Below, one piece after another: positions 26,412-43,521 of a DNA stretch of 64,000 nt. The position numbers and the translations under genes are program-made. The DNA is from a candidate division WOR-3 bacterium (GTDB lineage: Bacteria > Hydrothermota > Tepidihabitantia > B3-TA06). Each line of letters opens with the position of its first letter. Within the stretch, counting starts at the first letter, position 1. The DNA lies in NCBI GenBank assembly GCA_965649265.1, contig CBFGKC010000006.1, forward strand, positions 96,001 through 160,000, in the 5' to 3' direction. A model generated the notes under the pieces. That model was not told the origin of the DNA, did no database searches, and was given only the letters and a program-made list of their open reading frames with translations.

Positions 26412-27830
26412 TTAGCGTGTGACGGTAGACAAGTCAAAACGGGAAAACCCGGCGTCAGTGGCAATCCAGAGATAACGATCTTGCAGAGCTACTGCGGTGA
26501 CATTATCCGAAAGCAAACCGTCCTTTGATGTGAGGGAAAGCTGGTAGTTGGTTTCCGGATTGTATATGGTAACTCCGCCCTTGCCGCCGATTATTATGAG
26601 GCTGTCCGTTCCGGTTACCGAACGCTGCGGAACCGGCATAAATCCTGGGGTTACGTAATATGACCAGCCTGACCGCGATTGCTTGACCACAAGGGAGCCG
26701 GTCCAGAAATAGCGAGCGTTTTTGCCCCTAACTATCGCAAGTACGTCGTTTCGAACGAGTTTCATGCGTTCATCCTCAAGTGGAGCAGGAGAGCCTTTTG
26801 GTATTATTGCAAGCGTTATCCCATCCTCAGACGCAACGAAAAGCGAGTCTTTGTGAAAATCGACATCGTAAATTGTTTTTTGGGTGGTAATTGTTGACAG
26901 GGTTCTCGCCCCGAGATTATAAACGTCAATTTTCAGAGGGGCAAGAAGAAAGAGGTTTCCTTCTATAAGTCGAGCCTTATCATAGGTTGTCAGGCGGAGG
27001 TTCCCGGCGATGCCGTCGCTCCAGGCGGGCTGAGGACTGGTCGTGGTTCCCCAACGTGAAAATGCCCGAAATACAGTACTTCCGTTTCTCTGAACTAACT
27101 GATCTACTCCGTTCGTACCGAAGGCGTAAAGCGAGGTATCCGAACTGAAAAAAGAACTTACATCTACAGCTCCAGGGCTTTGGTATCGTAAGAGCTCGCG
27201 CCAGGAGAGCGCGTCAAATACCAGATATCCATACCCCGGTACTGATACGTAGGCCCTGTTCCTGAATTTGAAAACCATGGTGTAGGAGCGCTGCATGAGG
27301 GCATCATCGGTAAAAAACCACGGATTTAAATAAGGGTAACTGCGTGGTTTACTCTCAGGGGTATTCGGCCCGAACCAGTGAGTTGTCGAATCAGGTTCAA
27401 CGTTTTTCTCCTGGCCGGAGAGCTTCTCGACAGGCTGTACAAACGAGCCGTGGTCCAGAAACAGGTATTCGTTCGAGAGTCCAATTTTTGAGACAGGTGA
27501 GACTTTTGAAAGAATTATAGAACTTGTAATTCCACTCTGCGGTTGGAAAGTGTAAAGCCTGCCTTCTGTCGTGACGACCCAAAACCCGATAATGCTGCGG
27601 TCGTATATCGCCATTGATATGTTTTGAGGCAGCCCCCTCTCTGCTCCAAATGTCTCTCCGGGCAGGTTAGTGGAGGCGTCAAGTGTTAGTATTGACGTCC
27701 TGGTTACGGCGTATACGCTGCCGAAGACGTCATCGGCCGTGAAATTTCTTATTTCGTACAGCTTCGGATACTGCTGCCAGTCCGAGGGATTAAAGAAGTA
27801 TGCCAGAATCGAGAGCAGGATTGCGTTCAT
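26412..27830 (-). CDS. exported beta-propeller protein (two-component regulator propeller-like)
   Basis: Signal-like N terminus; GLPQNI, DGLLSDNVTAV..LWIATDAGFSR. Confidence 0.7.
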   Translation of the reverse strand: MNAILLSILAYFFNPSDWQQYPKLYEIRNFTADDVFGSVYAVTRTSILTLDASTNLPGETFGAERGLPQNISMAIYDRSIIGFWVVTTEGRLYTFQPQSGITSSIILSKVSPVSKIGLSNEYLFLDHGSFVQPVEKLSGQEKNVEPDSTTHWFGPNTPESKPRSYPYLNPWFFTDDALMQRSYTMVFKFRNRAYVSVPGYGYLVFDALSWRELLRYQSPGAVDVSSFFSSDTSLYAFGTNGVDQLVQRNGSTVFRAFSRWGTTTSPQPAWSDGIAGNLRLTTYDKARLIEGNLFLLAPLKIDVYNLGARTLSTITTQKTIYDVDFHKDSLFVASEDGITLAIIPKGSPAPLEDERMKLVRNDVLAIVRGKNARYFWTGSLVVKQSRSGWSYYVTPGFMPVPQRSVTGTDSLIIIGGKGGVTIYNPETNYQLSLTSKDGLLSDNVTAVALQDRYLWIATDAGFSRFDLSTVTR

Positions 27831-29419
27831 TTTTCATCCTTACAATGGCATTCATCACACTCTTCTTCATTATCATCCTCTTCCAGTGACGCGAAGGCCT
27901 GAGGAAGATAGCGAAGCAGGTCGCCGGCAAGCAAGGAGTGTTCGCCGATGTCCTCTATCGCTATATCAGCCGCTTTACCGTGAAGCCAGACGCCGAGCCG
28001 CGCGGCGGGGGAGAGGGGCATTTTTTGTGCAACAAGGCCGGCTATTATCCCTGTCAGAACGTCGCCGGTTCCTCCCGATGCGAGTCCCGAGTTTCCGGTC
28101 GAGTTAACCCAGGTTTCTGAGGGGCATCCGGTAACCGTCGGCGCGCCTTTGAGTGCAAGCACCGTTCCCCATTTTTTTGCATACTCCTCTGAAAGATCAA
28201 GTCTTTTCGAATCCACTTGCTTCGCATCCATGTCGGTCAGTCTTCCGAACTCTCCGGGATGCGGTGTCAGAATAAGTGGGGGCTTCTTTCCTTCGAGTAA
28301 TCCAGGCTCCGAGGCAATGGCGTTGATTCCGTCAGCATCGATAATCAACGGTTTCTTCCACTGCTTGAAGAGTTTCTTGACAAGTTCCACCGTTTCAGGA
28401 TGAGTGCCGAGTCCTGGACCAATTGCCAGAACGTTCACGTCCTCCACCATTGACATTATTTCCTCTAGCGCTTTCGATGAGATGTGGCCGTCGCCTGTAT
28501 CTGCCAATGGTTTTTTGACGACCTCCAGGAGAGAGGAATCGAATACGCCGCTCATGGTTGCCGGGAATCCGAGGTAAACGATTCCGGCGCCGGACCTTCC
28601 TGCCGCCTCGCAGGCAAGCCGCGCGGCGCCGCTCATGCCCTGGGAACCTGCAACAACGAGAACCTTGCCGAAGGTCGCCTTGTTTCCCCAGGGGACGCGA
28701 GAAGGAACTAGGAGGGAGGCGTCTTCGGACGTCATAAGTCGCAAATGCCCCTCGCCATCAAAGATCGCGCCAGGTATACCGATATCTGCAACCCACACCT
28801 CGCCGCAGTATTCCATGGTTGGATAAAGCACATGGCAGGGTTTCAGGTAAGCCATTGTGACCGTTACATCCGCTTGAACCGCAGTCCCTGGTTTTTCAAG
28901 CATGCCGTCAGCCTCGATTCCTGACGGCAAGTCGACGCTCACGACGAAACCCTCAGACTCGTTTACGAGTTCTATCGCCTTTTGAGCGAGTTCATCAGGC
29001 TTACCCTTGAATCCTGTGCCGAGAATCGCGTCCACGACCACGTCAAACGAATCGATATCGTCAATCCACGAAGCCAGGCCGTCCTCATCCAAGACCTCGT
29101 CTATGGGCAATCCCATCTTCTCGGCTATTCTCGCATTGGTAAGGGCATCGCCTTTCAGGTCGTCCACCCTGGCAAGCAGAATGATTTCGACGAACGCACC
29201 CCTGTTGGCCAGGTGGCGGGCCACGACGAATCCGTCGCCGCCGTTGTTACCTTTTCCGCAAACCATAAGAGCCCTTAAGCCGTCCGTGCCCAGGTACTCC
29301 TCGATGGTTTCGGCGACCGCACGGCCCGCGTTTTCCATGAGTAAAATTGTGGGTATCCCGAACTCGCTGGACGCGCGTTCATCTATTCCGCGCATCTCGT
29401 CGCGTCTCACAATACGCAT
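27827..29419 (-). CDS. nnr: bifunctional NAD(P)H-hydrate epimerase/dehydratase
   Basis: LMENAG, GKGNNGGDG, DAILGTG, DLPSG, TPHPGEF, GGTGDVLTG. Confidence 0.96.
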   Translation of the reverse strand: MRIVRRDEMRGIDERASSEFGIPTILLMENAGRAVAETIEEYLGTDGLRALMVCGKGNNGGDGFVVARHLANRGAFVEIILLARVDDLKGDALTNARIAEKMGLPIDEVLDEDGLASWIDDIDSFDVVVDAILGTGFKGKPDELAQKAIELVNESEGFVVSVDLPSGIEADGMLEKPGTAVQADVTVTMAYLKPCHVLYPTMEYCGEVWVADIGIPGAIFDGEGHLRLMTSEDASLLVPSRVPWGNKATFGKVLVVAGSQGMSGAARLACEAAGRSGAGIVYLGFPATMSGVFDSSLLEVVKKPLADTGDGHISSKALEEIMSMVEDVNVLAIGPGLGTHPETVELVKKLFKQWKKPLIIDADGINAIASEPGLLEGKKPPLILTPHPGEFGRLTDMDAKQVDSKRLDLSEEYAKKWGTVLALKGAPTVTGCPSETWVNSTGNSGLASGGTGDVLTGIIAGLVAQKMPLSPAARLGVWLHGKAADIAIEDIGEHSLLAGDLLRYLPQAFASLEEDDNEEECDECHCKDEK

Positions 29420-30705: not shown

Positions 30706-32043
30706 TCATTTCACAATTATAACCTTGCAGATTCGGCAAGGATCTACATCGGGGACTATGAAATACACGCCTGCCTCGTGTCCTTTACCCCATTTGAAAG
30801 TGCCTTGTGTTTGAGATGGTTTTATTTTGTCCACCTTGCGGCCGGATGCGTCGTATACATCGGCTTGAAAACCGCTGGGATGTCCCGAGTATTGCAGCAC
30901 TATCTCCTTACCGATGGGGGAGAGGAGTTGCCAGGCTGTTATTTGCTCGACAGCAGGTTTTTCCGCGACTCCTACGTTGCCAAGGGAATCGGTCTTAATA
31001 AGACAGATTTTGTAAATACCGCTTTCCGAGGTCATAACCTCTCCGGTAATAATAAAACCCTTATCCTGGGTTTCCTGGACACTGAATCCTCTGTTCCATG
31101 AGTTTTCGCCGAATTGTTTTGTCCACTGAAAGTTTCCATTTTTATCTAACTTAAGGAGGAGCAGAAAAGTTCCGTGATCGGTCCTGAAAATTCCGGTTGC
31201 GGCTAAACCGCCGTCATATGTCTCATCACAATCATAGGCCTGCAGAGAATCTCTTGCAAAAGACCAGACTGTATCCCCCAGTTCATCGAGCTTGAGTATC
31301 CATAAAGCCTGCCCGCCGTTTTTCCAGCCTGCAACATAGTACCCACCTTCGGTCTGGTGTATGGAGTAGCCCTTTTCTCCTTCCGTGGACAAGCCATGGC
31401 TTTTTGCCCAAAGGAGATTGCCCTTATCATCGGTCTTGACAACGCCCAGATGAAAGGCTGAATCTCTGCCTGTTACAATAAAACCGTTATCTTCAGTTTT
31501 TGCGATACACAAACCTTCCAGCCCATACTGGTGCGTCCAGACCGTATCGCCGTTCTTGTCGAACTTCATGATAGTCCAGGGGGTGCCTGTTGCAGCATAT
31601 CCGTCTGCCGTTTCGATTACACATTCGCCATAAGAAAAACCACTATTATTGCCAATCGCCTGAGTCCATAAAGTGTCGCCATAAGGGTTCGTTTTTATCA
31701 ACCACAAATGAACCGTCTGCCAGCCACCCGCACAACTACCCACGAGCGTATATCCTTCGTCAGTTGTTTGGATGACAGAAAGGCCTTTACCGCCGTAAGC
31801 TTTTGAATCCTTGTATGTTTTAGACCATTGGATTTCGCCCAAAGGATCGGTTTTCAGGAGGCAGGTTCCGGCTACTATATATCCTCCATCCTTTGTTTGC
31901 TTGACGGAGTATCCTGAATTGAAATCAGCGTCACCGTAAGTTTTCATCCAGCCGGCAACACTCGACAGAGGGAATATCAGCAACCCAAGAACCGTCAAGA
32001 CTATGTTTGTCAGAGGATTAAACACTAACCTCGATTTTTCCAT
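30706..32043 (-). CDS. secreted beta-propeller repeat protein with T9SS-type CTD (paralog of 21626)
   Basis: GWMKTYG, QTKDGGYI, LIKTDSLG; YDASGRKV...GVYF...KVIIVK. Confidence 0.85.
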   Translation of the reverse strand: MEKSRLVFNPLTNIVLTVLGLLIFPLSSVAGWMKTYGDADFNSGYSVKQTKDGGYIVAGTCLLKTDPLGEIQWSKTYKDSKAYGGKGLSVIQTTDEGYTLVGSCAGGWQTVHLWLIKTNPYGDTLWTQAIGNNSGFSYGECVIETADGYAATGTPWTIMKFDKNGDTVWTHQYGLEGLCIAKTEDNGFIVTGRDSAFHLGVVKTDDKGNLLWAKSHGLSTEGEKGYSIHQTEGGYYVAGWKNGGQALWILKLDELGDTVWSFARDSLQAYDCDETYDGGLAATGIFRTDHGTFLLLLKLDKNGNFQWTKQFGENSWNRGFSVQETQDKGFIITGEVMTSESGIYKICLIKTDSLGNVGVAEKPAVEQITAWQLLSPIGKEIVLQYSGHPSGFQADVYDASGRKVDKIKPSQTQGTFKWGKGHEAGVYFIVPDVDPCRICKVIIVK

Positions 32044-32131: not shown

Positions 32132-33433
32132 CTAGCTCGCGTAAGGGAACAGGAACTTTAGCGATGCGCCGAAGCGGTAGAACTTTTCGGTATACAAATC
32201 TTCCTCCAGCCCGAACTTCTTGGACCAGGTCGCGTACTCGAAGGAACTGTTGAGGACAACATACGAAGAGATAGGTATGCCTATCCCTGCGGTTACACCT
32301 TTGAGATACTTTGGTGTGTGCTGGCCTGAGTCGGCCTGCGGGATCGCGTCAAAGTAGAAACCTCCGCGTACTATCACAGGCGATACGAATTCGGCACCGA
32401 AGCGGAACGTGGAACCGTCGTTCACGCCGAGCCTTGAGCCTAAGGCCTCGACGGCAGTGAAGAAGCGAGTCTGGAATTCACCTGAAAGATTGAGGAAAGG
32501 CAAAATCTTCGACCGCAAACCGACGGTGAAGACGCCGGGCAACATGTAGGCTGTTGAGTCATCTACCTGGTGTTTTATCTGAATTCCATTAGTGTCCAAT
32601 ACAAGCGTTGAATCAAACCAAGTAATCTCCGTTCCGGAAAGGCTTTCCTCGCCCCATCTCCAGCCCCAGGCTATAGGTGATCGATATGAGAAGCTTATAC
32701 CCAACTGGGGAAAGGGTTCCGCAAACGCGCCTACAGTGAAAAAATTTCCTGTCGAGGAGAAGTTACCTTTGTATCTTATTCGTGTTTCATCGTATATACC
32801 GGAGGTGTCCCCGTCTTCAATCTCAAGATCATCGTAAACGCTTACTTCGTAATAGCTGCTTTTGAGCTTCTCTAGTGCGCTGAAGCTGAAGGCCAGACCA
32901 ATGGAGTAATTGTCCAGTATGCTCATTGCGATCGCCGGGGTTATTACCCTTAAACCGCCGGTTGCGGTATCGGTCATCTTATAACTTCCGTTTTCGAATT
33001 CCCAGTTAATCTCCCTGTTGACGGCATTATCAATATGTAGGTGATAGCCGAAAGCAGGATAGAGCACAGCGTATTCCGCGATCTGGATGGGCAAAGCTAA
33101 AGAGACGTGTGTGAACTGGGGGATGGTGTTATATTTTGTGTAGTATTGCTCTTCTTGTATCTCTTCCTGGCCGAAACCCCAGTAAAGCCTTCCGCCGATC
33201 TCCATTTCAAGATAATCAGCGTCCAGCAAAAGAGCAGGATTGAAAAAGATGGCGTTCGAACCCTGAGCGCTGACCGATCCGGTATTGCCCATGCCGCAGG
33301 AACGGACATCCACGACGGTGGGATTAATTGCGTCAACCATAAATGCATAAACGGTTGAATTTACGAAAAATAGCGGTAACAATACGACCAAAGTCTTAAA
33401 GGTCGCTTTTTTTTCAAATCCTGACATGCACAT
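32132..33433 (-). CDS. outer-membrane beta-barrel (FadL/PorV-like)
   Basis: VRSCGMGNT...NAIFFNPALL motif; alternating beta-strands; RBS GGAGG. Confidence 0.75.
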   Translation of the reverse strand: MCMSGFEKKATFKTLVVLLPLFFVNSTVYAFMVDAINPTVVDVRSCGMGNTGSVSAQGSNAIFFNPALLLDADYLEMEIGGRLYWGFGQEEIQEEQYYTKYNTIPQFTHVSLALPIQIAEYAVLYPAFGYHLHIDNAVNREINWEFENGSYKMTDTATGGLRVITPAIAMSILDNYSIGLAFSFSALEKLKSSYYEVSVYDDLEIEDGDTSGIYDETRIRYKGNFSSTGNFFTVGAFAEPFPQLGISFSYRSPIAWGWRWGEESLSGTEITWFDSTLVLDTNGIQIKHQVDDSTAYMLPGVFTVGLRSKILPFLNLSGEFQTRFFTAVEALGSRLGVNDGSTFRFGAEFVSPVIVRGGFYFDAIPQADSGQHTPKYLKGVTAGIGIPISSYVVLNSSFEYATWSKKFGLEEDLYTEKFYRFGASLKFLFPYAS

Positions 33434-33692
33434 ACCTACCTCCAGGCTTGCCTTTTTTGTATCTATAGTGTATACCGAAACATGTGATTTGTCAAGCCCT
33501 TCTGTGAGCTTCTGGTCATCTAAGTCAAGCCAAAAAAACATCTGTAACCGTCAGCCCTCTCAGTCATATCCCGGCATTGGTCTTACAGACTGAGTTAATT
33601 GGAATAATATCCAAATCACAAGCAGAGAAAGATGTGTTACTGAGTCCTCCTCAGAAACCTCCTCAGAGCTACCCCTCAGTCTTCCTTACATC

Positions 33693-34012: not shown

Positions 34013-34070
34013 GTGTGTTACGGGGGGGGGACGGGTGTTACGGGTGGGTGTTACGGGTGGCGTTACGGGG
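34013..34070 (-). repeat. CCCGTAACAC array at the radical SAM gene stop
   Basis: GTGTTACGGG copies on the plus strand; the first minus-strand copy supplies CCG TAA of the rSAM gene. Confidence 0.8.
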
Positions 34071-35085
34071 CAGAGAGAATCTGGGCGACGAATGGTTCGG
34101 TACCACCGCATTCATTTGCGGCGGCCCGGCACGATGCCCGGCATGTCTCGATATCCTTGCACCCTCTGCACATCTCCGGTATATCCTCAATGAACTCCTT
34201 CCTTTCGGCGGAATCCATCAGCTCCCAGAAACTTTTTTCCCTGATATTCCCGAGAACGAGCGGGGTGTGGTTGCACGGACGCAGATTGCCTATGGAATCC
34301 ACCACCGGGTAGCACTCCTCGGTTCCCGCCGAGCAGAAACCGAAGCCGAGATGCGGGTAGTTCTTAATATCCACGAGGCAGCAGGGGATAGGTATCGATA
34401 CGCTTATGGGGAACCTCTTTTCTACCGCGAACCGCTCGGCTGTGTCGAGCATGAAGAGCACATCCTGGGGGGAGGGGGAGAGTTCGTCGAGATTCTCGAG
34501 TCCCCTTCCGCCGGGATTGAAGCGGTTGAGCATCACGCCGTGCGTACCGAGGCTCCTTGCGAACTCCAGGGTTTCCCAGAGCCTTGCGAGGTTGATCTTT
34601 GTGACGATCAGGGCGACTACAATCTTCGCCTTTGTCGAAAGCACGGCCTCTATCCCTCGAACTGATTTCTCGAAGCTTCCACTGCATCCCTGCAGGTATT
34701 CGTGCTCGTCTGGCCTGTCCGATAGAAGCTGGATCTCGAAAAGAGAGATTCCAGCCCTCACAAGCGTCTTTGCGAGTTTCTTGTCGAGCGCCTGGCCGTT
34801 CGTGATGATGTTGAGCTGAGCGCCCGAGAGTGCGGCCTGAAGCGAGATGTCCACGAGATCGGGTCTCAGAGTCGGTTCTCCGCCGCTTATCGTGAAGAGT
34901 GACGGCTTCGTCTCTTTTAAGAGCTTTGCCAGCATCTCGCGGGTTTCCTTTGGGTTCAAGTCCTCATGTACAGTTTCCGGATGCTTATGCCAGATGTTGT
35001 AGCAGAAGCGGCATTTGAGATTACATCTTTGGGTTACTTCGAAGATGAGGATTTTCTGGCGGCGGTCCCTTAACGAATCGTTCAT
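34063..35085 (-). CDS. radical SAM/SPASM-domain protein (putative protein maturase)
   Basis: CNLKCRFC, SGGEPTLR, ITNG; SPASM CSAG...GNLRPC...GNI...CRGC-x5-C-x3-C; ATG 1 nt after the stop of the last array gene. Confidence 0.93.
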   Translation of the reverse strand: MNDSLRDRRQKILIFEVTQRCNLKCRFCYNIWHKHPETVHEDLNPKETREMLAKLLKETKPSLFTISGGEPTLRPDLVDISLQAALSGAQLNIITNGQALDKKLAKTLVRAGISLFEIQLLSDRPDEHEYLQGCSGSFEKSVRGIEAVLSTKAKIVVALIVTKINLARLWETLEFARSLGTHGVMLNRFNPGGRGLENLDELSPSPQDVLFMLDTAERFAVEKRFPISVSIPIPCCLVDIKNYPHLGFGFCSAGTEECYPVVDSIGNLRPCNHTPLVLGNIREKSFWELMDSAERKEFIEDIPEMCRGCKDIETCRASCRAAANECGGTEPFVAQILSAP

Positions 35086-35086
35086 G

Positions 35087-35662
35087 CTAATTATCTTCCT
35101 TTTTCTCAGTTCCTGACGTATCCGGTTTGCTGACTATTAGTTTTGCCAGGTGAGAGGTTTCAGAATTAAGCGAGGATATTTTCATGAAGACCCTGACGGT
35201 TTCAGGCGGAAGGCCTCGAACATCCAGCCTCGCTTCCAGAAGTTCCGCGGAGCTGTCGAATTTCCCGTCGACCGGGTCGAGCGATATAATATAAGGTTCA
35301 GCATCCGGTCGGCTAACCGCGGCCGTAGCACTGTATATTATGTCACCAGGTATTTCTGTTCTTCCAAGAACCTTTATAGTTACGGAATCCGCACCCCTGG
35401 TCGGGTTGGGATAGATCAAAAGCGAGTCGACAATCTCATCTGCAGGCGGAGAAAAATGAACATAGTAGCAAGTAATCGCCGGTTCATAGTGACGGTGTGT
35501 CAGACATCCTATGAGCGAAAGTAAGCCTCCTAGAAGAACCAGTTTAAAATGTCTGGTTGTTCTTGAAAATCGGTTCTTGCTCTCTAAAACCGAAAGAAGA
35601 TGGAATACTAAACCTCCCGCTCGGCTCAACAACCCTGAGAGCCTATTACGCAACTTGATCAC
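35087..35662 (-). CDS. CY-motif array protein 12 (predicted lipoprotein)
   Basis: Leader ..SRAGGLVFHLLS..; LIG-C; AITCY; YPNPTRGADSV; VDGKFD. Confidence 0.88.
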   Translation of the reverse strand: MIKLRNRLSGLLSRAGGLVFHLLSVLESKNRFSRTTRHFKLVLLGGLLSLIGCLTHRHYEPAITCYYVHFSPPADEIVDSLLIYPNPTRGADSVTIKVLGRTEIPGDIIYSATAAVSRPDAEPYIISLDPVDGKFDSSAELLEARLDVRGLPPETVRVFMKISSLNSETSHLAKLIVSKPDTSGTEKKEDN

Positions 35663-35691
35663 TGGTCAATATACGGCTGATAGGGATGGTG

Positions 35692-36252
35692 TCAATCCTT
35701 TTCTTCCGTAGAGTCAGGGTCCGTCACGACAAGCATTAGTTGTTGCGTATACATGCCTGCCTGGGAGGTGTAGAAGGTCAGGTCCACCCATGTTGTTTCG
35801 GAGACAAGCCCTCCGATATAGAACCTCCCCTGAACGGCCTCAAGCGTGTCCGAAAAATCTCCGTCAACCGCATCGAGAGGCGTAAGAAGCGTGTCTGATG
35901 CCAGTTTTATCGTCGCGCCGGTAATGATGTTGCCTTCTATTCCCGGATCGTAAACCTTGGCCGTCGCCTTCACCGTTACCGTATCCGCGCCTTTTGTAGG
36001 ATTCGGCGTAATAGCAGCCTCGGTGACTACCACGGGGTCAATTATGGCCATGTCGTAGCAGGTTGCTATGGGTGTCTCCGGCTGTGCCCTGAGCCAGCCT
36101 GCAACAGTCAGAACGAGACCTAAAACGAAGAGCTTGGTCCACCTCGCCGTCTTTTTAATAGTTCCCTCCTCCTCCCAGCTTGAAAGAACCGGAAGGAGTT
36201 TTGCTCCTATCCTCGTTATGAATGATGAAAGCGCGTTTCGAGTCTTAATCAT
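35692..36252 (-). CDS. CY-motif array protein 11 (SPase I type)
   Basis: ARWTKL; LRA|QPETPIATCY; TPNPTKGADTV; VDGDFSDT. Confidence 0.9.
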   Translation of the reverse strand: MIKTRNALSSFITRIGAKLLPVLSSWEEEGTIKKTARWTKLFVLGLVLTVAGWLRAQPETPIATCYDMAIIDPVVVTEAAITPNPTKGADTVTVKATAKVYDPGIEGNIITGATIKLASDTLLTPLDAVDGDFSDTLEAVQGRFYIGGLVSETTWVDLTFYTSQAGMYTQQLMLVVTDPDSTEEKD

Positions 36253-36281
36253 GTTTTACTGTACCTCACTTTTCCGGACTG

Positions 36282-36839
36282 TCAATCTTTTTCTGTCGAA
36301 TCGGGTTCAGAAATCACAAGCTGCAGCCCTTCAACATTTATGCCTGCCTGCGGGGTGTAGAATGTGATGTAAACCCGGGTGGTTTCGGGTCCAAGCCCGG
36401 TGACGCACAGACGGCCTTCAACTGTCTCGAGCGTGTCCGAAAACTTGCCGTCGACCGCACGGAGAGGGACAATAACCGTATCGCCGCCAATTCTTGCATC
36501 CGCTCCGGAGATTATATTGCCTTCAAGTTTCGAATCGTAGACCCTTGCGGTCGCTCTCACCGTAACCGAGTCGGCGCCATTTGTGGGGTTAGGCGTAATA
36601 GCAGCCTCAGTGATTATTACCGGTTCAATGACGACCGGATCATAACAGGTCGCATACCCCCTGGTCTCTTGGGCCGAGAGCCAGCCTAGTAAGCCCAGGA
36701 TGAAACCCAGAATGTAGATTTTTGCAAATCTCGCGAATCCCTTAAGAACCCCTTCCTCCTCCCACCTTGAGAGAAGCGGGAAGAGTTTTGCTCCAACATT
36801 GCTTACAAACGCCGCGAGCGAGCTGCGAGCTTTGGCCAT
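36282..36839 (-). CDS. CY-motif array protein 10 (SPase I type)
   Basis: LSA|QETRGYATCY; TPNPTNGADSV; VDGKFSDT; RBS AAGGAGG. Confidence 0.9.
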   Translation of the reverse strand: MAKARSSLAAFVSNVGAKLFPLLSRWEEEGVLKGFARFAKIYILGFILGLLGWLSAQETRGYATCYDPVVIEPVIITEAAITPNPTNGADSVTVRATARVYDSKLEGNIISGADARIGGDTVIVPLRAVDGKFSDTLETVEGRLCVTGLGPETTRVYITFYTPQAGINVEGLQLVISEPDSTEKD

Positions 36840-36903
36840 AAAATTCCTCCTTGACTGCGACTACTCCTGTTATACAGTTGCAGGTGCAATAAATTCCCTT
36901 AAC

Positions 36904-37443
36904 CTATTCGGTTATCTCGATATCTGAGCTGTCTTCGATTACCTTGTTCTTGCTTGTAGATATTCTGACATGGACTTTTGCGTTTGCGGTATCGATACCC
37001 CTGATGCTTAACTTCGCCGAGATTTCCTCGTATGAACCGTCAAAAGCACTATCCGCAGCCAGCATCTCCACCGTGTCGGAATTTGCACCTTTCCCGGTAA
37101 TGAAACACTGTGCCGATTTTACATAATTGTCCTTGGAGCCTGGGATTATATTGGCTCTGGCTTTGACCATAACCGAGTCGGCTCCAGCCGTAGGATCAGG
37201 CAAAACCTCGATATTATGAATGGGGGGAGGTACAGGCTCGTAGCACGTGACCGGGCAGCAGGCGGTCGAGCCGGCCGCTCCGGAAAGACCTAATCCTGAA
37301 ACGAGTGCACTCAGGAATGAAAGCTTCATCCACCTTGCAAGCTTGGGTAGTACCCTGCGTTCCTCGCATCTTGAGTAGAAGTCAAAAAGCGCAAAACCGG
37401 CTTTCCTGAGAATCTCGAAAACAATGTGTCTTGCCTGAGCCAT
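36904..37443 (-). CDS. CY-motif array protein 9
   Basis: Start MAQARH; CEERRVLPKLARWMKL; STACCPVTCY; PDPTAGADSV; ADSAFDG. Confidence 0.9.
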   Translation of the reverse strand: MAQARHIVFEILRKAGFALFDFYSRCEERRVLPKLARWMKLSFLSALVSGLGLSGAAGSTACCPVTCYEPVPPPIHNIEVLPDPTAGADSVMVKARANIIPGSKDNYVKSAQCFITGKGANSDTVEMLAADSAFDGSYEEISAKLSIRGIDTANAKVHVRISTSKNKVIEDSSDIEITE

Positions 37444-37450
37444 GATACTG

Positions 37451-37990
37451 CTATTCTGATTCCGTGATGTACAAATCCACTGTCGTGTAATCTCGCTCCC
37501 CTTTATTGGAGGTGGCCTCAATGTTTACACTGCAGGTATCGCCTGCGGCAAGATTGCCTACGTATAATCGAGCTTCTACGTCTTTCATTCCGTATGGATC
37601 GGTTTTCGTGACAATCATCGTTATGGTGTCGTCATTAAGAACACATATCACCTTATCCACATAATCTTCTTCTATGCTTACTCCATTGGGGACATTTGCG
37701 CTCGCTTCAACGGTTACTGAATCTGAGCCTGACGTCGGATTAGGGGTTATTGAGCAGGTTGCGATTTGAGGTTTCGGGTACTCCATCGGTGCGTAACACG
37801 TTATGCAGTTGAGCATGCTGGCCGCACTCAATGCGGTAATTCCTGTCACGAAGGCTCCGAGGAAGGTCGTTTTTACCCACCTGGAAGCCCTTGGCAGTAT
37901 CCCGCAATCCTCACAGTGGGAGAAGAAGTTGAAGAGTGATGTTCCCATTCTCCTCAAGGTTTCAAAGAAGAGGTAGCGGCTACTGGCCAT
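37451..37990 (-). CDS. CY-motif array protein 8
   Basis: CEDCGILPRASRWVK; MLNCITCY; TPNPTSGSDSV. Confidence 0.9.
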   Translation of the reverse strand: MASSRYLFFETLRRMGTSLFNFFSHCEDCGILPRASRWVKTTFLGAFVTGITALSAASMLNCITCYAPMEYPKPQIATCSITPNPTSGSDSVTVEASANVPNGVSIEEDYVDKVICVLNDDTITMIVTKTDPYGMKDVEARLYVGNLAAGDTCSVNIEATSNKGERDYTTVDLYITESE

Positions 37991-38005
37991 TGTGCCTCCG
38001 GTGAT

Positions 38006-38521
38006 TTATTCAGTTATCTCGAGGTCGATTGTTGTATCCGCTCGCTGGTCTTCATTGTCGTATTCTGTGATTTGTATGGTTACTGTATCGGGCTCGAGGT
38101 CTCCTATATACAACTTCGCGTTCACGGCATATTCATTCGTGTAGTCTCCAGGCTCTATCTTCATGACGGTGGTGTCATTCTCGAGGATACATATCACCTT
38201 TTTCAATTCAATCCCGTTATCGGCAATTGCCTTGGCGGAAACGCTAACAGTGTCGGCCCCTGCCGTAGGATTTGGTGCCACGGAGGCGTTTTCGATTCGA
38301 GGTGATTCAATTGGCAAGTAGCAGCCGGTGGGGATACAGTTGATCATGCTGGCCGCGCTCAACGCGGTAATTCCTGTCACGAAGGCTCCGAGGAAGGTCG
38401 TTTTTACCCACCTGGAAGCCCTTGGCAGTACCCCGCATTCCTCACAGCGAGAGAAGAAGTTAAAGAGTGAGGTGCCTATCCTCCTCAAGGATTCAAAGAA
38501 AAAAAACTTTGTTCTAGCCAT
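38006..38521 (-). CDS. CY-motif array protein 7
   Basis: Start MARTKF with RBS AAAGGAGG; MINCIPTGCY; APNPTAGADTV. Confidence 0.9.
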   Translation of the reverse strand: MARTKFFFFESLRRIGTSLFNFFSRCEECGVLPRASRWVKTTFLGAFVTGITALSAASMINCIPTGCYLPIESPRIENASVAPNPTAGADTVSVSAKAIADNGIELKKVICILENDTTVMKIEPGDYTNEYAVNAKLYIGDLEPDTVTIQITEYDNEDQRADTTIDLEITE

Positions 38522-38543
38522 GGTTCCTCCTTTCACTGTATTA

Positions 38544-38571
38544 AATATAATCAACTTGCTCGGATTGTCAA
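38544..38571 (-). promoter_or_regulatory. internal promoter within the array
   Basis: TTGACA-N16-TATATT on minus strand, same boxes as the array head promoter. Confidence 0.65.
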
Positions 38572-38603
38572 TCCATGAAAATCACCTGAAATCCTGGCAG
38601 GTG

Positions 38604-39131
38604 TTATTTATCAGTAACGCGGAGAACGGTCGAGCCTATGCCCCAGCCTGAGGTTTTTGAATCGACTTTTACAAAGACCTGAGTGCTGTCCGTTTTGATT
38701 TTCTTCACGTATATGCGCCCGATGAGTTCCTCATTATTCTCGTCGAATGCGCCGTCCCTCGCTATCATCCGGATGGTGTCTCCATCGACTATGCACTGGG
38801 CTGAGGCTATTATTTCGAGATCGCTTGCGTTTTCAAGTCTGGCTTTGGCGGTAACGGTCACCGAGTCGGCGCCTTTCGTCGGGTTAGGCTTGACTACTAT
38901 CTCCGAAACCCTGGGATATACGGCCACAGGTTCGTAGCAGGTCACGAGCCCCTGATCCAGCGGAGGTTTTTTGGCGCATGCCGCAATGATGGTCAGCCAC
39001 GCTCCAGCAAGCGCGAGCTTGAGCCAGCGTGATATCCTTGGCAGAGCGCTTCGTTCCTCACACCCGGTCAGAATGGAGAACAGTGCCGAGCCTGTTCTCC
39101 TCAAAAACCTTGACAGTAACTCTCGCTTCAT
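38604..39131 (-). CDS. CY-motif array protein 6 (predicted lipoprotein)
   Basis: IAA-C lipobox; GLVTCY; KPNPTKGADSV; RDGAFDE. Confidence 0.9.
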   Translation of the reverse strand: MKRELLSRFLRRTGSALFSILTGCEERSALPRISRWLKLALAGAWLTIIAACAKKPPLDQGLVTCYEPVAVYPRVSEIVVKPNPTKGADSVTVTAKARLENASDLEIIASAQCIVDGDTIRMIARDGAFDENNEELIGRIYVKKIKTDSTQVFVKVDSKTSGWGIGSTVLRVTDK

Positions 39132-39700
39132 AACGAGTCCTTTTCAGTGATAAATAGCGGTAATGAAACCAGTGCTTCTTCACCCTTGGAAGTGGCCGCG
39201 TGCACGTAGACGAAGGTGGTCCCGGGTTTAAGACCCGCGACGCTGATGCGTGCCTCAATCATCTCGACGGTATCCGAGAAGCGGCCGTCCACAGGGTACA
39301 TCCGGATTTTCCTTGACGTATCAATGGCCATTACGAGCCAAGCATCCGACACGTAATTGTTCTCAAGGCCAGGTTCCAGCACCCTTGCGGTGCCCGTTAT
39401 CTTGACAGTGTGCACGCCCCTTGTCGGGTTCGGGCTTGCCTGAACTACTGAGATTTCGGGATCCATCCTTCTCATCATGTAACATGTGTGGACAGGACCG
39501 TCGCCGTCTCCTCCTGGTCCGGGTCTTGCCTTTTTCCCGCACGAGGCTATCAGGGCGACAACGAGCCCGAGTAGCGAAACCTTCAAAAAGCGCGCGGTCT
39601 TTGAAAATATTGGAGTATCCTGGCATCTCGATAGCGCATTAAACACCAGATTACCTGCATTTCTGAGAACTGCAATCAAGCTCTTTCTCATCTTTGCCAT
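39128..39700 (-). CDS. CY-motif array protein 5 (predicted lipoprotein)
   Basis: IAS-C lipobox; PVHTCY; SPNPTRG; VDGRFSDT. Confidence 0.9.
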   Translation of the reverse strand: MAKMRKSLIAVLRNAGNLVFNALSRCQDTPIFSKTARFLKVSLLGLVVALIASCGKKARPGPGGDGDGPVHTCYMMRRMDPEISVVQASPNPTRGVHTVKITGTARVLEPGLENNYVSDAWLVMAIDTSRKIRMYPVDGRFSDTVEMIEARISVAGLKPGTTFVYVHAATSKGEEALVSLPLFITEKDSL

Positions 39701-39719
39701 TCTGCCTCTCCTATCTCGT

Positions 39720-40262
39720 TTAATCTGGTTCAGTAATCACCAGTTCTAAAGATTCAATTTCAATTTGACCGGAAGAATTTTCTACCTCTAAGTATATCCA
39801 TGTCGTTTCCGGCTCAAGGTCTCCAACGTAAAGTCGGCCGACTATTCTCTCCGAAGCGGCGTCGAATTTCCCGTCAATCGCCCGCATGGGGTAATATATT
39901 GTATCTCCATCCATTCTCATGCGGGCTGAGCTTATCGTGCTTTCGCCGCTGTAGTGATCGCTAATCTTTGCCGTGGCCTTGACGGTTACCGAATCGGCGC
40001 CCCTTGTAGGGTTAGGCCTTACGGAAAGTTTGGATAGTTCTATGAGGGGAGGGGGGGCGGGCTTGTAGCACATTATGACGTCTTCCTTTGCTTCGAGCGA
40101 GAGAGCGCTCACGAGTGCCACGAAAAATCCGAGGAATGTGAGCTTCAACCATCTTGCCGCCCCGGGGAGGATGCGGCGTTCCTCGAATCCGGAAAACGTT
40201 CCGAAAAGCCTTCCGCCAATCCTTGCAAAAAAGTCTGCCAGGCGTTTTCTGAGTTCAGGCAT
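39720..40262 (-). CDS. CY-motif array protein 4 (SPase I type)
   Basis: LEA|KEDVIMCY; RPNPTRGADSV; IDGKFD. Confidence 0.9.
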   Translation of the reverse strand: MPELRKRLADFFARIGGRLFGTFSGFEERRILPGAARWLKLTFLGFFVALVSALSLEAKEDVIMCYKPAPPPLIELSKLSVRPNPTRGADSVTVKATAKISDHYSGESTISSARMRMDGDTIYYPMRAIDGKFDAASERIVGRLYVGDLEPETTWIYLEVENSSGQIEIESLELVITEPD

Positions 40263-40263
40263 A

Positions 40264-40833
40264 TCAATCCTCCTTATTCTCGTTGCTGTCCGCTTCCGGT
40301 GCGGTGATGATTAATTGCCTCCAGGTGCTTTCCGCGTTGCCTGAGTTTGTCCTCACCACTATGTAAATCCAGGTGGTCTCCGGCTTGTGATCCCCGACGT
40401 AGAGACGGCCTTCGACTGTTTCAAGGGTATCGCCGAACTTACCGTCAACCGCTTTCATCGGATATAAAAGGGTATCTCCGGTAAGCTGCATAATTGCTTC
40501 GGAAACAGCGGTGTCACCTGAGCAATAATATGCAGATTCCAATTTTGCGGTTGCCTTGACTGTAACGGTGTCTTTTCCTGCAGTGGGGTTCGGTGTTGCC
40601 GAGACATCGAAGATACTTAAGTGAGGTTCCTCAATAGGCACGTAGCACATGATGATATCGTCGTCCGCCTTGAGCGCTGGCGCGCCCAGCAGGGTTACCA
40701 GCAATCCCAGAACCGAAAGCTTTAGCCATCTTGCCGGTCTGCGTAGGATACCGCGTTCCTCCAATCCGGACAGTATCCCGAATAAGGAGCCGCCTATCCG
40801 TGAAGAGATGCGGGCCAGTAAGCCTTTTGTCAT
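40264..40833 (-). CDS. CY-motif array protein 3 (SPase I type)
   Basis: LKA|DDDIIMCY; TPNPTAGKDTV; VDGKFGDT. Confidence 0.9.
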   Translation of the reverse strand: MTKGLLARISSRIGGSLFGILSGLEERGILRRPARWLKLSVLGLLVTLLGAPALKADDDIIMCYVPIEEPHLSIFDVSATPNPTAGKDTVTVKATAKLESAYYCSGDTAVSEAIMQLTGDTLLYPMKAVDGKFGDTLETVEGRLYVGDHKPETTWIYIVVRTNSGNAESTWRQLIITAPEADSNENKED

Positions 40834-41409
40834 CTACTCCTCCCTGGCAGCGCTCGAATCAGCTGCGAGCGAATCAATCCTTGTTACGGTGTAGGACTGC
40901 CAAAGAATCTCTTCATCTTCTCTGGAACTCGTCACGTCTATAAAGAACCAGTGGGTGCCGGTATCCAGGTCGCCTGTGTAAAACATGGCCTCAAGAACCT
41001 CAAGAGTGTCGTTAAGCTTGCCGTCCACGGCCTTCATGGGAATCCTCAGGGTGTCACGCTGCCTGGAAAGCCAGGCGTTTCGGATGTAATTGTTCTCAAG
41101 GGTCGGGTCCAGAACTTTTGCAGTTACCTTTACTTTTACCGAGTCCGCTCCTCGAGTCGGATTTGGTGTGATGGACACATCCGAAATCTTTACCTCCGGC
41201 ATCCTCATGGCTACGTAACAGGTCTTAATTGTTTCTACCTCGGCGGAAAGTGCTCCGATGGCTGCGGTAAGAAATCCAAGCAGTGAGAGCTTTAACCAGC
41301 GCGAAGCGCTGGGCACAATCCCGCGCTCTTCGAATCGCGACAGGAGTGAAAAGAGACCTCCTCCCAGCACTTCAAGAATCCTTACGACGAACCCTTTCGT
41401 TCTCGCCAC
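40834..41409 (-). CDS. CY-motif array protein 2 (SPase I type)
   Basis: GTG start at 41409 (MARTKG); LSA|EVETIKTCY; TPNPTRGADSV; VDGKLNDT. Confidence 0.9.
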   Translation of the reverse strand: MARTKGFVVRILEVLGGGLFSLLSRFEERGIVPSASRWLKLSLLGFLTAAIGALSAEVETIKTCYVAMRMPEVKISDVSITPNPTRGADSVKVKVTAKVLDPTLENNYIRNAWLSRQRDTLRIPMKAVDGKLNDTLEVLEAMFYTGDLDTGTHWFFIDVTSSREDEEILWQSYTVTRIDSLAADSSAAREE

Positions 41410-41410
41410 G

Positions 41411-41983
41411 TCACTCCACCTTTGTCGAATCAGTCCTGATAGAATCAGGCTCCGAGACTTCAAAATAAAACCAGCTCGCTTCCAGTGCATCCTGGGATGT
41501 CTGGACGAGCATTGAGATCGAGTACTGGCCCGGTTCAAGATTTCCAACGTAAACCGTACCCTCGAGCACCTCGAGCGTGTCGTCCATCTTGCCGTCAAGT
41601 GCTTTGACCTTGAACCTCGTCGTATCACCGTCCCAGGAGAGCCAGGCGTCCTTTATGAAGTTATCCTTGATATTCGAGTACATCACCTTGGCCTGGGCCT
41701 TCACTTTCACCGAATCCGCTCCCTTCGTGGTATCAGGGGTTACGGACTTCTCTGTTATGATGACGTCGGGAATCCTCGCGACGATGTAGCAGGTGACTTC
41801 CGGATCCCTGGCTTGAAGTGAGAGTGTCGCGACTAGCGAGGCTATGATTCCCAGGGTCGAGATCTTTATCCATCTCGCGGCACGCGGCATGACGCCTTTT
41901 TCTTCTATCATTGTCAGAAAATGGAAAATTGCATCTCCCAGTTTCCCTAACAGCCTGGATAAGAGGTTGCGTGTCTTGGCCAT
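41411..41983 (-). CDS. CY-motif array protein 1 (SPase I type)
   Basis: Start MAKTRN with RBS AAAGGAG; LQA|RDPEVTCY; TPDTTKGADSV; LDGKMDDT. Confidence 0.9.
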   Translation of the reverse strand: MAKTRNLLSRLLGKLGDAIFHFLTMIEEKGVMPRAARWIKISTLGIIASLVATLSLQARDPEVTCYIVARIPDVIITEKSVTPDTTKGADSVKVKAQAKVMYSNIKDNFIKDAWLSWDGDTTRFKVKALDGKMDDTLEVLEGTVYVGNLEPGQYSISMLVQTSQDALEASWFYFEVSEPDSIRTDSTKVE

Positions 41984-42033: not shown

Positions 42034-42061
42034 AATATAAGCCCCAAAAGACAGGTGTCAA
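42034..42061 (-). promoter_or_regulatory. promoter of the CY-array/rSAM operon
   Basis: TTGACA-N16-TATATT on minus strand. Confidence 0.65.
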
Positions 42062-42198: not shown

Positions 42199-43521
42199 AT
42201 GCATCCATTTCTGGTTTTCTGTTGTTGTTTGATTTCATCTTTGACTTGGAATAGACATTATGATTTTCGGTTTAGTGACCACTGTAGCGCGCTTGTGCCG
42301 GTAGAGGACGGTTACGTGATTACGGGTAACACTATGCGGTATCTATTCGTGCAGAAGGTCGATACTCTGGGAAATCAAGTCGGTTACAAAGAGTGGTATA
42401 AGGCCGAAGGTTATGACATAGAGAGAATGTCTGATGGTTATATTATTCTTGCGTACAAAGACGAATCTCCCAGGCACGGGATTTGGTTGGTAAGAACAGA
42501 TAGCGATTTTGACACACTTTGGAGTAGAAGCTATGGATATAATAATGGAATTATGGCAAAATCTCACTCATTTGATTTAACAGATGACAGTGGTTTAGTG
42601 ATGGTCGGTGAGTGCGGCACGGGTCTTATTGTCTTTAAAACCGATAGTCTTGGTGATAGCTCCTGGGTAAAAAAATATTTTCAGTCTGTCTCGATGCGCG
42701 CTGGGAATTTTATTGAAGAAACATCTGATCAAGGTTTTATTGTTACGGGAGTTTGTGAGGAACGTTTTTTTGCACTGAAATTGGATGAGAATGGGGATTC
42801 CTTATGGTGTAAGAAATATTTTGAGGAAAAAACAGGTGAAGGTCTTTGTATAAGAGAAACCTCCGACAAAGGCTTTATAGTATTGGCTAGGATAAGGTAT
42901 GGTAGTTCGGATTCCTTGCTTCTCATCAAGACGGATTCTTTTGGAAACGCTTTGTGGGTGAGAAAATTCAATTCGATGTCTCATTGGACTAGAACATGTT
43001 ATATTGAGGTTCTGGATGATGGTTATGTTATGATTTCAGGGTCACAAGAAGGTCCATTAGTCAGGAAATTTGACGAGTCTGGGAATGTCCTTTGGACAAA
43101 GACCTACAATCGTAATTTCGGTTATTTTTCCGGATTTGAAGGCACATGTATTCATTACACATCGGATAAAGGTTTTATTATTGGCACCGCTTTGGATATA
43201 TCTCCATACGGATCAGACCTCTGGCTGGTGAAAACCGACAGCCTAGGAAACACGGTTCCTCTTGAATCCGTGATAGAGCCAACGGAGACTGCCGTTAGCG
43301 AAGTTCATCTGAGTGTTTTGAATTCAGCTGTTGCATATTCCTTACCTGCTGGCGAGCGTTGTTTGTTGAAAATCTATGATGTTAGTGGAGTATTGAAAAA
43401 AGGAGAAATTGTTTGTGGCCGCGGAGAGATGCGACTAAAAGAATTCCCTGTAGGGGTTTATTTCGCTGAGTTACAGTTCATGCGAAGTGCTGAAATCAAA
43501 AAGGTATTAGTTTTTCCCTAG
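42199..43521 (+). CDS. secreted beta-propeller repeat protein with T9SS-like CTD
   Basis: LVKTDSLG / ETSDKGFI repeats; IYDVSG...GVYF...KKVLVF; AT-rich. Confidence 0.82.
   Translation: MHPFLVFCCCLISSLTWNRHYDFRFSDHCSALVPVEDGYVITGNTMRYLFVQKVDTLGNQVGYKEWYKAEGYDIERMSDGYIILAYKDESPRHGIWLVRTDSDFDTLWSRSYGYNNGIMAKSHSFDLTDDSGLVMVGECGTGLIVFKTDSLGDSSWVKKYFQSVSMRAGNFIEETSDQGFIVTGVCEERFFALKLDENGDSLWCKKYFEEKTGEGLCIRETSDKGFIVLARIRYGSSDSLLLIKTDSFGNALWVRKFNSMSHWTRTCYIEVLDDGYVMISGSQEGPLVRKFDESGNVLWTKTYNRNFGYFSGFEGTCIHYTSDKGFIIGTALDISPYGSDLWLVKTDSLGNTVPLESVIEPTETAVSEVHLSVLNSAVAYSLPAGERCLLKIYDVSGVLKKGEIVCGRGEMRLKEFPVGVYFAELQFMRSAEIKKVLVFP

Follow-up and report, generated by a model that had tools for sequence, protein, structure and literature searches.

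The window analyzed here is a 64,000-nucleotide stretch of contig CBFGKC010000006.1 (assembly GCA_965649265.1, positions 96,001 to 160,000 of the forward strand) from a candidate division WOR-3 bacterium. It contains a tight operon in which 12 paralogous genes for putatively exported proteins, all carrying a Cys-Tyr dipeptide, are followed by a gene for a radical S-adenosylmethionine (SAM) enzyme with a SPASM domain. We consider it likely that the locus encodes a motif-directed maturase that would modify the Cys-Tyr motif of its substrates in the cytoplasm before their export, much as anaerobic sulfatase-maturating enzymes (anSMEs) do with theirs. This reading starts from the gene order, its conservation, and the pairing of one enzyme clade with the same motif across phyla, all of which are observed, and from these we infer the catalytic and cell-biological steps.

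The paralog array and its radical SAM/SPASM enzyme

Twelve open reading frames (ORFs) of 171–191 amino acids (aa) lie in tandem on the minus strand between positions 35087 and 41983 of the window, with gaps between ORFs of −4 to 82 nucleotides (nt). The radical SAM/SPASM gene starts 1 nt past the last of them. These ORF coordinates agree with the layout given in the initial annotation of this DNA, which had described 12 co-oriented paralogs followed 1 nt later by a radical SAM gene. The features of the locus are:

42034..42061, minus strand: promoter-like site TTGACA-16-TATATT upstream of paralog 1 (consensus match only)
41411..41983, minus strand: paralog 1, 190 aa; Cys-Tyr at aa 65–66 (41786–41791), context EVTCYIVARI; only Cys of the protein
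40834..41409, minus strand: paralog 2, 191 aa, GTG start; Cys-Tyr at aa 64–65 (41215–41220); only Cys
40264..40833, minus strand: paralog 3, 189 aa; M-C-Y at aa 62–64, Cys-Tyr codons 40642–40647
39720..40262, minus strand: paralog 4, 180 aa; M-C-Y, Cys-Tyr codons 40065–40070; only Cys
39128..39700, minus strand: paralog 5, 190 aa; hydrophobic segment terminating in lipobox-like I-A-S-C; Cys-Tyr at aa 73–74 (39479–39484)
38604..39131, minus strand: paralog 6, 175 aa; lipobox-like I-A-A-C; Cys-Tyr 38934–38939
38544–38571, minus strand: the same two promoter-like hexamers before paralog 7 (pattern match only)
38006..38521, minus strand: paralog 7, 171 aa; G-C-Y, Cys-Tyr codons 38318–38323
37451..37990, minus strand: paralog 8, 179 aa; Cys-Tyr 37793–37798
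36904..37443, minus strand: paralog 9, 179 aa; Cys-Tyr 37240–37245
36282..36839, minus strand: paralog 10, 185 aa; Cys-Tyr 36642–36647; structure modelled
35692..36252, minus strand: paralog 11, 186 aa; Cys-Tyr 36055–36060; only Cys
35668–35695, minus strand: the same two promoter-like hexamers before paralog 12 (pattern match only)
35087..35662, minus strand: paralog 12, 191 aa, GTG start; Cys-Tyr 35465–35470
34063..35085, minus strand: radical SAM/SPASM enzyme, 340 aa; CX3CX2C and 8 conserved C-terminal Cys

The recurrence of the TTGACA/TATATT hexamers before paralogs 7 and 12 suggests that the array may have internal promoters, and Shine-Dalgarno-like purine runs precede most operon genes (pattern matches only). 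A search of public sequencing runs with the whole operon returned no RNA run and one DNA run, with a small word share.

In the alignment of the 12 paralogs, M1, G16, R37, K40, C65, Y66, P83, T86, G88, V92, and D130 are invariant. The residue preceding Cys-Tyr is Thr in 9 paralogs, Met in 2, and Gly in 1, exactly as first annotated, and the description of this dipeptide as an invariant island in a hypervariable stretch is borne out by the pairwise identities: 0.17 over the 8 preceding residues, 1.0 for Cys-Tyr itself, and 0.20 over the 12 residues that follow, compared with 0.55 at the start of the C-terminal immunoglobulin (Ig)-like domain. The residues flanking Cys-Tyr are thus the least conserved part of the paralogs. 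All 44 copies from the window and six relatives in which the site is covered have Cys-Tyr, and M1, C65, and Y66 are the only invariant positions among 42 full-length family members. The initial annotation had also divided the proteins into a long leader, a hydrophobic signal segment, and an Ig-like domain. Consistent with this, the AlphaFold2 model of paralog 10 (42 homologues; mean predicted local distance difference test score of 89) consists of a helix at residues 2–29, a second helix at 33–55, a coil at 56–73, in which Cys-Tyr sits, and a beta-sandwich at 74–176. Foldseek searches with this model returned only generic Ig/E-set folds (template modeling score of approximately 0.4), none of the 12 paralogs matched a Pfam family, and none reached the cut-off of an NCBIfam family, the sole listed match being a sub-threshold one to AgrD (16.2 bits).

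There are exactly 12 copies of the family in the organism's own genome (2.74 Mb, 96% complete). When 1.84 billion representatives were searched with a profile, 705 proteins matched at E ≤ 1e-3, and approximately 40 of these are full-length (170–200 aa); the remaining matches comprise the Ig-like domain alone, often repeated, in proteins of 500–4000 aa. We examined 44 of the listed proteins (≤359 aa), several of which are the window's or its relatives' own. The site is covered in 42 of them, with Cys-Tyr in 41 and Tyr-Tyr in 1. As a separate observation, the Ig-like domain (P-N-P-T-x-G-A-D ... D-G-x-F-D) is repeated 3–11 times per protein in P0001, P0006, P0013, and many others. Judged by sequence, the C-terminal domain of the paralogs is a common surface-protein module without a Pfam model.

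The hydrophobic helix ends in I-A-S-C or I-A-A-C in 2 of the 12 paralogs and in L-S-A, L-Q-A, L-K-A, or L-E-A in most others, endings that look like a mixture of signal peptidase II and signal peptidase I sites; LspA is present in the genome. Together with the Ig fold, these signal-like sequences suggest a surface location for the paralogs. Three conventional roles for these segments were considered and rejected. Cys-Tyr does not represent the lipobox Cys, which is a separate residue both in this family (hereafter the Stahlbacteria family) and in the Chloroflexota family described below, and it is not a disulfide site because its Cys is the only one of the protein in 4 of the 12 paralogs (1, 2, 4, and 11). 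The N-terminal segment does not fit a type IV pilin or twin-arginine translocation (Tat) signal in spacing or residues: the window paralogs carry R-W/F/H-x-K and not the twin-arginine RR, and neither TatC (PF00902) nor TatA (PF02416) was found in the 96% complete genome.

The enzyme matches the radical SAM superfamily (PF04055, 74.5 bits; cut-off 29.5) and the SPASM domain (PF13186, 30.6 bits; cut-off 21.5), and its radical SAM core begins at about residue 12–16 of 340. The CX3CX2C motif (C21/C25/C28) and 8 further Cys (C236, C251, C271, C306, C309, C315, C319, and C326, including CX2CX5CX3C at 306–319) are invariant in 7 orthologs, in keeping with the full SPASM cysteine set that had been annotated. 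We detected no RiPP recognition element (RRE; RiPP, a ribosomally made peptide that is modified after translation) or PqqD domain on the enzyme in Pfam searches at E up to 0.1, which returned only PF04055, PF13186, and PF13353, and the operon contains no small partner gene of the RRE type. The enzyme lacks a signal peptide. Its closest solved structure by sequence is an anSME (PDB 4K36–4K39; residues 12–320, E 4e-10). At least 440 clusters (90% identity) match the enzyme profile, and public names of its relatives are 'radical SAM protein', sometimes 'with 4Fe4S-binding SPASM domain'; neither Pfam nor NCBIfam has a model for the enzyme clade or its substrates. A complex prediction of the enzyme with three 4Fe-4S clusters, SAM, and substrate residues 1–95 scored 0.62 for the pair and 0.55 for one unrelated control, and counts neither for nor against enzyme-substrate binding.

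To follow the two components through related organisms, we analyzed 41 genomes, consisting of the organism's own and 40 relatives. Full-length paralogs occur in 7 of them: 12 copies in G000, 9 in G001, 18 in G002, 1 each in G003, G007, and G009, and at least 3 in G005, where they lie at contig ends. An ortholog of the enzyme (66–89% identity) is found in exactly the same 7 genomes, the next best matches being ≤31% identical, and its gene directly follows the last paralog in 7 of 7, even where there is a single paralog. The co-occurrence that the initial annotation had proposed as a check therefore holds throughout this set. Four genomes of the same family have neither component. In one of these (G006), a 34-aa leader match lies at the syntenic site (L044:7427-7528; G006:C7:62426-62527), between homologues of the window's flanking genes, as if left behind by a deletion. 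The paralog family and the enzyme have been gained and lost together. Because 12 copies exist in one genome and the family recurs with the radical SAM enzyme in relatives, the array is not a chance pattern.

The Cys-Tyr motif and the enzyme clade across phyla

We scanned a collection of genomes, one per species, with the enzyme alignment and obtained 42 loci. One of these is from a metagenome-assembled genome (MAG) labelled Candidatus Stahlbacteria (70% identity), and 29 further loci, with 219–338 bits against the ortholog profile (186 bits for one frameshifted copy), belong to Chloroflexota, Planctomycetota, Pseudomonadota, Spirochaetota, Patescibacteria, and unclassified MAGs. A second set of 67 metagenome loci, partly overlapping the first, behaved in the same way. 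In these phyla, radical SAM enzymes that are 33–45% identical are encoded directly downstream of otherwise unrelated exported proteins. In most such loci the upstream gene encodes a protein of 200–260 aa with a twin-arginine signal, an invariant post-signal Cys, and a helical body; an invariant T-C-Y is located in a loop. The consensus of this partner family is ...HVWRSNAPITCYEP...., and many of its members have a second TCYxPxPP right behind the signal. The Chloroflexota partners carry an invariant RR and match TIGR01409, and their post-signal Cys is mostly found as R-C, sometimes as G-C or A-C. Their universally conserved TCY follows the signal at a distance of approximately 100 residues and, in the structural model, occupies a loop within a helical domain. 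Cys-Tyr is in coil in both modelled substrates. Spirochaete and Patescibacteria partners have hydrophobic segments, a lipobox-like Cys, [T/M]-C-Y-[E/V]-P, and a beta-rich domain.

In profile-profile comparison, the spirochaete substrate and the Stahlbacteria family aligned over their whole architecture, with signal, Cys-Tyr, and beta domain (84.5% probability). The Chloroflexota and Stahlbacteria families, by comparison, aligned over 9 columns around TCYxP only. The model of the Chloroflexota partner found no counterpart in the PDB with Foldseek at E ≤ 0.001, and protein-atlas searches with paralog 10 and with a Chloroflexota partner reached scores of 0.80 at best, which is below the meaningful level. 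Besides T-C-Y, the Chloroflexota family (alignment A5; e.g., L048:345-1055) has W58, H122, R125, Q151, and D179 invariant. These additional residues exceed the needs of a mere tag and hint at a functional site around the modified residues.

To measure how specifically the motif accompanies the enzyme, we took all loci outside Stahlbacteria for which 700 nt or more of upstream sequence was available and considered same-strand ORFs of at least 60 aa ending no more than 1.6 kb upstream of the radical SAM gene, using other long ORFs of the same loci as controls. Cys-Tyr was found upstream in 63 of 66 loci and in 43 of 268 control ORFs. With [T/M]-C-Y the counts were 60 of 66 and 1 of 268, and with [T/M]-C-Y-x-[PAVMI] they were 58 of 66 and 0 of 268. 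Position −1 of the motif is Thr in 22/42 and 39/50 instances, position +3 is Pro in 23/42 and 33/50, and position +4 is Val, Ala, or Ile; there is no conserved Arg. In a quick maximum-likelihood tree of 52 radical SAM enzymes, from which a truncated copy and a duplicate of one contig were omitted, all 32 enzymes with a Cys-Tyr neighbour fell in one group of 34 rows, the other 2 rows having no upstream sequence. Radical SAM enzymes of 28–35% identity from Aegiribacteria, Omnitrophota, and a Woesearchaeote had no Cys-Tyr neighbour. Altogether, because the enzyme clade pairs with the same x-[T/M]-C-Y-x-P in unrelated exported proteins, Cys-Tyr is the common element of these loci, and the connection between enzyme and Cys-Tyr drawn in the initial annotation now extends to other phyla.

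A variant arrangement was observed in Pseudomonadota and unclassified MAGs (L069:1903-4705, L071:3096-5985; L060 and L065), in which the radical SAM gene lies behind a gene for an S-P-W/S-S-P-W repeat protein that ends with the Cys-Tyr motif (e.g., IMCYFMGPP), and a second radical SAM/SPASM-like gene lies farther upstream. These loci may represent an elaborated form of the system with two enzymes.

No third gene family recurs around the enzyme-substrate pair. The barrel-like (469 aa) and propeller-like (445 aa) genes that flank the operon in the window were considered as parts of the module and rejected: they are absent beside the pair in G007 and G009, so that the unit consists of one or more substrate genes and the radical SAM gene. 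The barrel-like gene (32132–33541, minus strand), which adjoins the operon in the two closest genomes only, gives weak matches, all sub-threshold, to outer-membrane barrels (BamG, PorV, and FadL-type). The propeller-like gene (30706–32043, minus strand) has weak SBBP beta-propeller repeats and a match below cut-off (16 bits) to a type IX secretion system (T9SS) type A sorting domain. At the other flank of the operon, a gene for a protein of approximately 440 aa (42199–43521, plus strand) also shows weak SBBP beta-propeller repeat matches. Farther downstream, an ordinary housekeeping gene (27827–29419, minus strand) encodes a bifunctional NAD(P)H-hydrate repair enzyme with YjeF N- and C-terminal domains above cut-off.

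Proposed maturation before export and competing explanations

Taken together, the data suggest a two-component maturation module, made of a cytoplasmic radical SAM/SPASM enzyme and its substrates, here 12 paralogs in one tight operon. Because it depends on SAM and reducing equivalents and carries no signal peptide, the enzyme must act in the cytoplasm. It would read a short linear motif (a hydrophobic residue, T/M, and C-Y-x-P) in an unstructured part of the secretory precursor, and recognition would require neither a RiPP-type leader nor an RRE. Recognition of a motif, rather than the leader-guided logic of RiPPs, is favored because the motif is the only common element and the enzyme lacks an RRE. 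Modification of Cys and/or Tyr would then follow, with the help of the 5'-deoxyadenosyl radical and of two auxiliary 4Fe-4S clusters. Tat exports proteins that have been finished in the cytoplasm, and cytoplasmic maturation before export therefore fits the use of Tat by the Chloroflexota partners. In the organism's own genome, export would presumably proceed through the general secretory (Sec) pathway, because no TatC or TatA was found and the paralogs carry R-W-x-K and not RR. Judging from the residues behind the hydrophobic segment, the signal could be cut by signal peptidase I, or by signal peptidase II for 2 of the 12 paralogs, which would leave the modified Cys-Tyr approximately 5–20 residues from the new N-terminus, on a variable stalk before the Ig-like domain. 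We speculate that the conserved 30-residue helix ahead of the signal, which is peculiar to this lineage, holds the precursor back for modification.

With regard to the chemistry, we rank first a thioether between the Cys sulfur and a nearby carbon (of the sactionine/ranthionine type, possibly onto Tyr), which fits because the Cys is invariant and the enzyme would have two auxiliary clusters. Because the adjacent Tyr is invariant as well, a link between Cys and Tyr or a Tyr-centred product is suggested, and second place goes to a C-C or C-O crosslink centred on Tyr, or to a protein-bound cofactor derived from Cys-Tyr. Oxidation of Cys to formylglycine, by analogy with anSMEs, would be the conservative alternative and ranks third.

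Several observations weigh against maturation of Cys-Tyr by this enzyme. The representative P0030 (176 aa), a full-length member of the family, has T-Y-Y in place of x-C-Y; it may be a decayed or enzyme-independent copy. A Sec substrate would need to be modified before translocation, a timing that sequence alone does not explain. At three loci (L068, L144, and L145) the upstream Cys-Tyr gene is absent. The branch uniting the clade in the quick tree search has only moderate support (Shimodaira-Hasegawa-like approximate likelihood ratio test, 84), the 'Cys-Tyr neighbour' labels on that tree were assigned by the analyst, and the locus sets include duplicates between the two collections and non-independent relatives. 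Finally, tetrapyrrole enzymes lead the NCBIfam scores of the enzyme, with AhbD at the top (111.8 bits; cut-off 500), followed among them by NirJ2 (99 bits; cut-off 500), NirJ1 (85.9 bits), and NirJ (84.8 bits), the AhbD/NirJ cut-offs being 500–650.

These scores bear on the possibility that the target of the enzyme is a small molecule, for instance a cofactor precursor of tetrapyrrole-like or other type, and that the Cys-Tyr proteins bind the resulting product or carry it in covalent linkage. Cys-Tyr would in that case be an attachment or ligand site and no direct substrate of the radical SAM enzyme. AhbD, NirJ2, NirJ1, and AhbC are indeed among the top NCBIfam scores, one relative has been automatically named 'AdoMet-dependent heme synthase', the lack of an RRE would be expected, and the Chloroflexota partners have H122, R125, and W58 invariant near TCY, as a cofactor site might. 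However, the tetrapyrrole scores are 4–6 times below the family cut-offs and similar to those for peptide maturases (GeoRSP, 101.6 bits, cut-off 400; PqqE, 81.7 bits, cut-off 381; MftC, 75.5 bits, cut-off 265). In total, 84 NCBIfam families matched at E ≤ 0.1 with none near its cut-off, and no cofactor-biosynthesis family reached its own; clustering of the enzyme with such families was among the outcomes that the initial annotation had named as refuting its proposal. Moreover, the pair has no conserved neighbour with a role in the biosynthesis of tetrapyrroles or other compounds, and in the Stahlbacteria family nothing but Cys-Tyr is invariant, which would be a poor basis for a cofactor pocket. 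Action on a small molecule thus seems unlikely to us.

Alternatively, Cys-Tyr could be a structural, sorting, or processing signal for another machine, such as a protease or an anchoring enzyme, with the radical SAM enzyme linked to it otherwise, for instance as a partner that needs the Cys-Tyr proteins as scaffold or regulator. The position of Cys-Tyr near the predicted signal-peptide cleavage region in the Stahlbacteria family would agree with this. Nevertheless, the Chloroflexota TCY, approximately 100 residues past the signal, is no signal-proximal feature, the lipobox-like Cys and the Cys of Cys-Tyr are different residues in either family, and the radical SAM gene is the only gene that tracks the motif across phyla. 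We therefore judge such a signal to be quite improbable. It is very hard to sustain that shared descent and local synteny alone produced the association, leaving it without functional meaning: many loci do come from related Anaerolineae MAGs, some duplicated between collections, but the pairing spans at least five phyla with non-homologous partners, [T/M]-C-Y occurs in 1 of 268 controls, and both genes have been lost together in genomes of the same family.

Comparison with known systems and significance

The proposed motif-directed maturation of Cys-Tyr resembles several known systems in part. An anSME acts on a short Cys-containing motif of a full-size protein that is exported afterwards. As here, it is a SPASM radical SAM enzyme of similar size without an RRE. 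The sulfatase motif that it recognizes is C/S-x-P/A-x-R, which is absent here, the motif being [T/M]-C-Y-x-P without a conserved Arg. The substrates of anSMEs are sulfatases, whereas the paralogs have no sulfatase domain, and the sequence similarity between the enzymes is weak. QhpD is a SPASM enzyme that crosslinks Cys of the small QhpC subunit in the cytoplasm before this subunit reaches the periplasm; in substrate size this pair is comparable with ours. It forms several Cys-to-Asp/Glu links, and a dedicated protease and a transporter belong to that system; at the loci described here there is no third conserved gene and the motif is Cys-Tyr.

Other radical SAM enzymes act on Tyr. PqqE and MftC have substrates with an essential Tyr, which are short peptides, work with a PqqD/RRE partner, and have their product excised. 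Their models gave full-length sub-threshold matches to our enzyme, but the substrates here are exported proteins of 170–260 aa, with no RRE and no peptidase. PlpX-type spliceases are radical SAM/SPASM enzymes that act at the Tyr of an X-Y-G motif. The initial annotation had pointed out that Tyr is never followed by Gly, which is correct both for the window paralogs (0/12) and for the family (0/42), and there is no PlpY-like partner gene.

The initial annotation had also named the TIGR04133/TIGR04134 pair, which shares with our locus a radical SAM/SPASM gene next to a gene for a lipoprotein-type exported protein. That relationship did not hold up: the enzyme scores 83.3 bits with TIGR04133, for a cut-off of 425, and none of the 12 paralogs matches. 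As for Tat substrates, RR is invariant in the Chloroflexota partners and lacking from the window paralogs. A further parallel with a protein-sized substrate is CrpC of Methanococcus voltae, which is described as a SPASM enzyme with a predicted RRE that makes ranthionine crosslinks on Cys of the adjacently encoded, Cys-rich, protein-sized CrpA (PMC13692751). Our system differs in having a single conserved Cys-Tyr, 4 of 12 substrates with one Cys, no detected RRE, and export signals on the substrates. By their defining features, each of the named families considered excludes the system described here.

A literature search, which did not cover supplementary files, found no paper on this enzyme-motif pair, and in PMC11951088 the radical SAM passages concern MCR methylations only. 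Novelty here lies in the Cys-Tyr motif, in substrates that are exported proteins of several unrelated folds, and in the tandem multiplication of substrate genes; radical SAM/SPASM maturation of ribosomal products as such was known already. It is chiefly for the production of small modified peptides that radical SAM/SPASM enzymes are known. To our knowledge, validated action on full-size proteins is rare and comprises sulfatases, the QHNDH gamma subunit, and recently CrpA. The present enzyme clade is tied to a Cys-Tyr motif of four to six residues and not to a leader peptide, and this motif is found in non-homologous exported proteins of several, mostly uncultured, phyla. We tentatively propose, as a possibility still short of even chances, that these loci represent a widespread, undescribed class of motif-directed radical SAM/SPASM maturases that introduce a new modification on Cys-Tyr of exported proteins, with arrays of 9–18 variable Ig-domain substrates per enzyme in the present lineage and members in Stahlbacteria/WOR-3, Chloroflexota, Planctomycetota, Pseudomonadota, Spirochaetota, and Patescibacteria. 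Such a modification would be, for example, a crosslink or a protein-bound cofactor derived from Cys-Tyr and made anaerobically by radical chemistry. If this is true, it would represent a new post-translational chemistry on secreted proteins of anaerobes, and the motif would offer a short, transferable tag with which proteins could be modified enzymatically. The cell-surface biology of WOR-3/Stahlbacteria, in which one enzyme would serve a dozen variable Ig-domain proteins, would also become more approachable.

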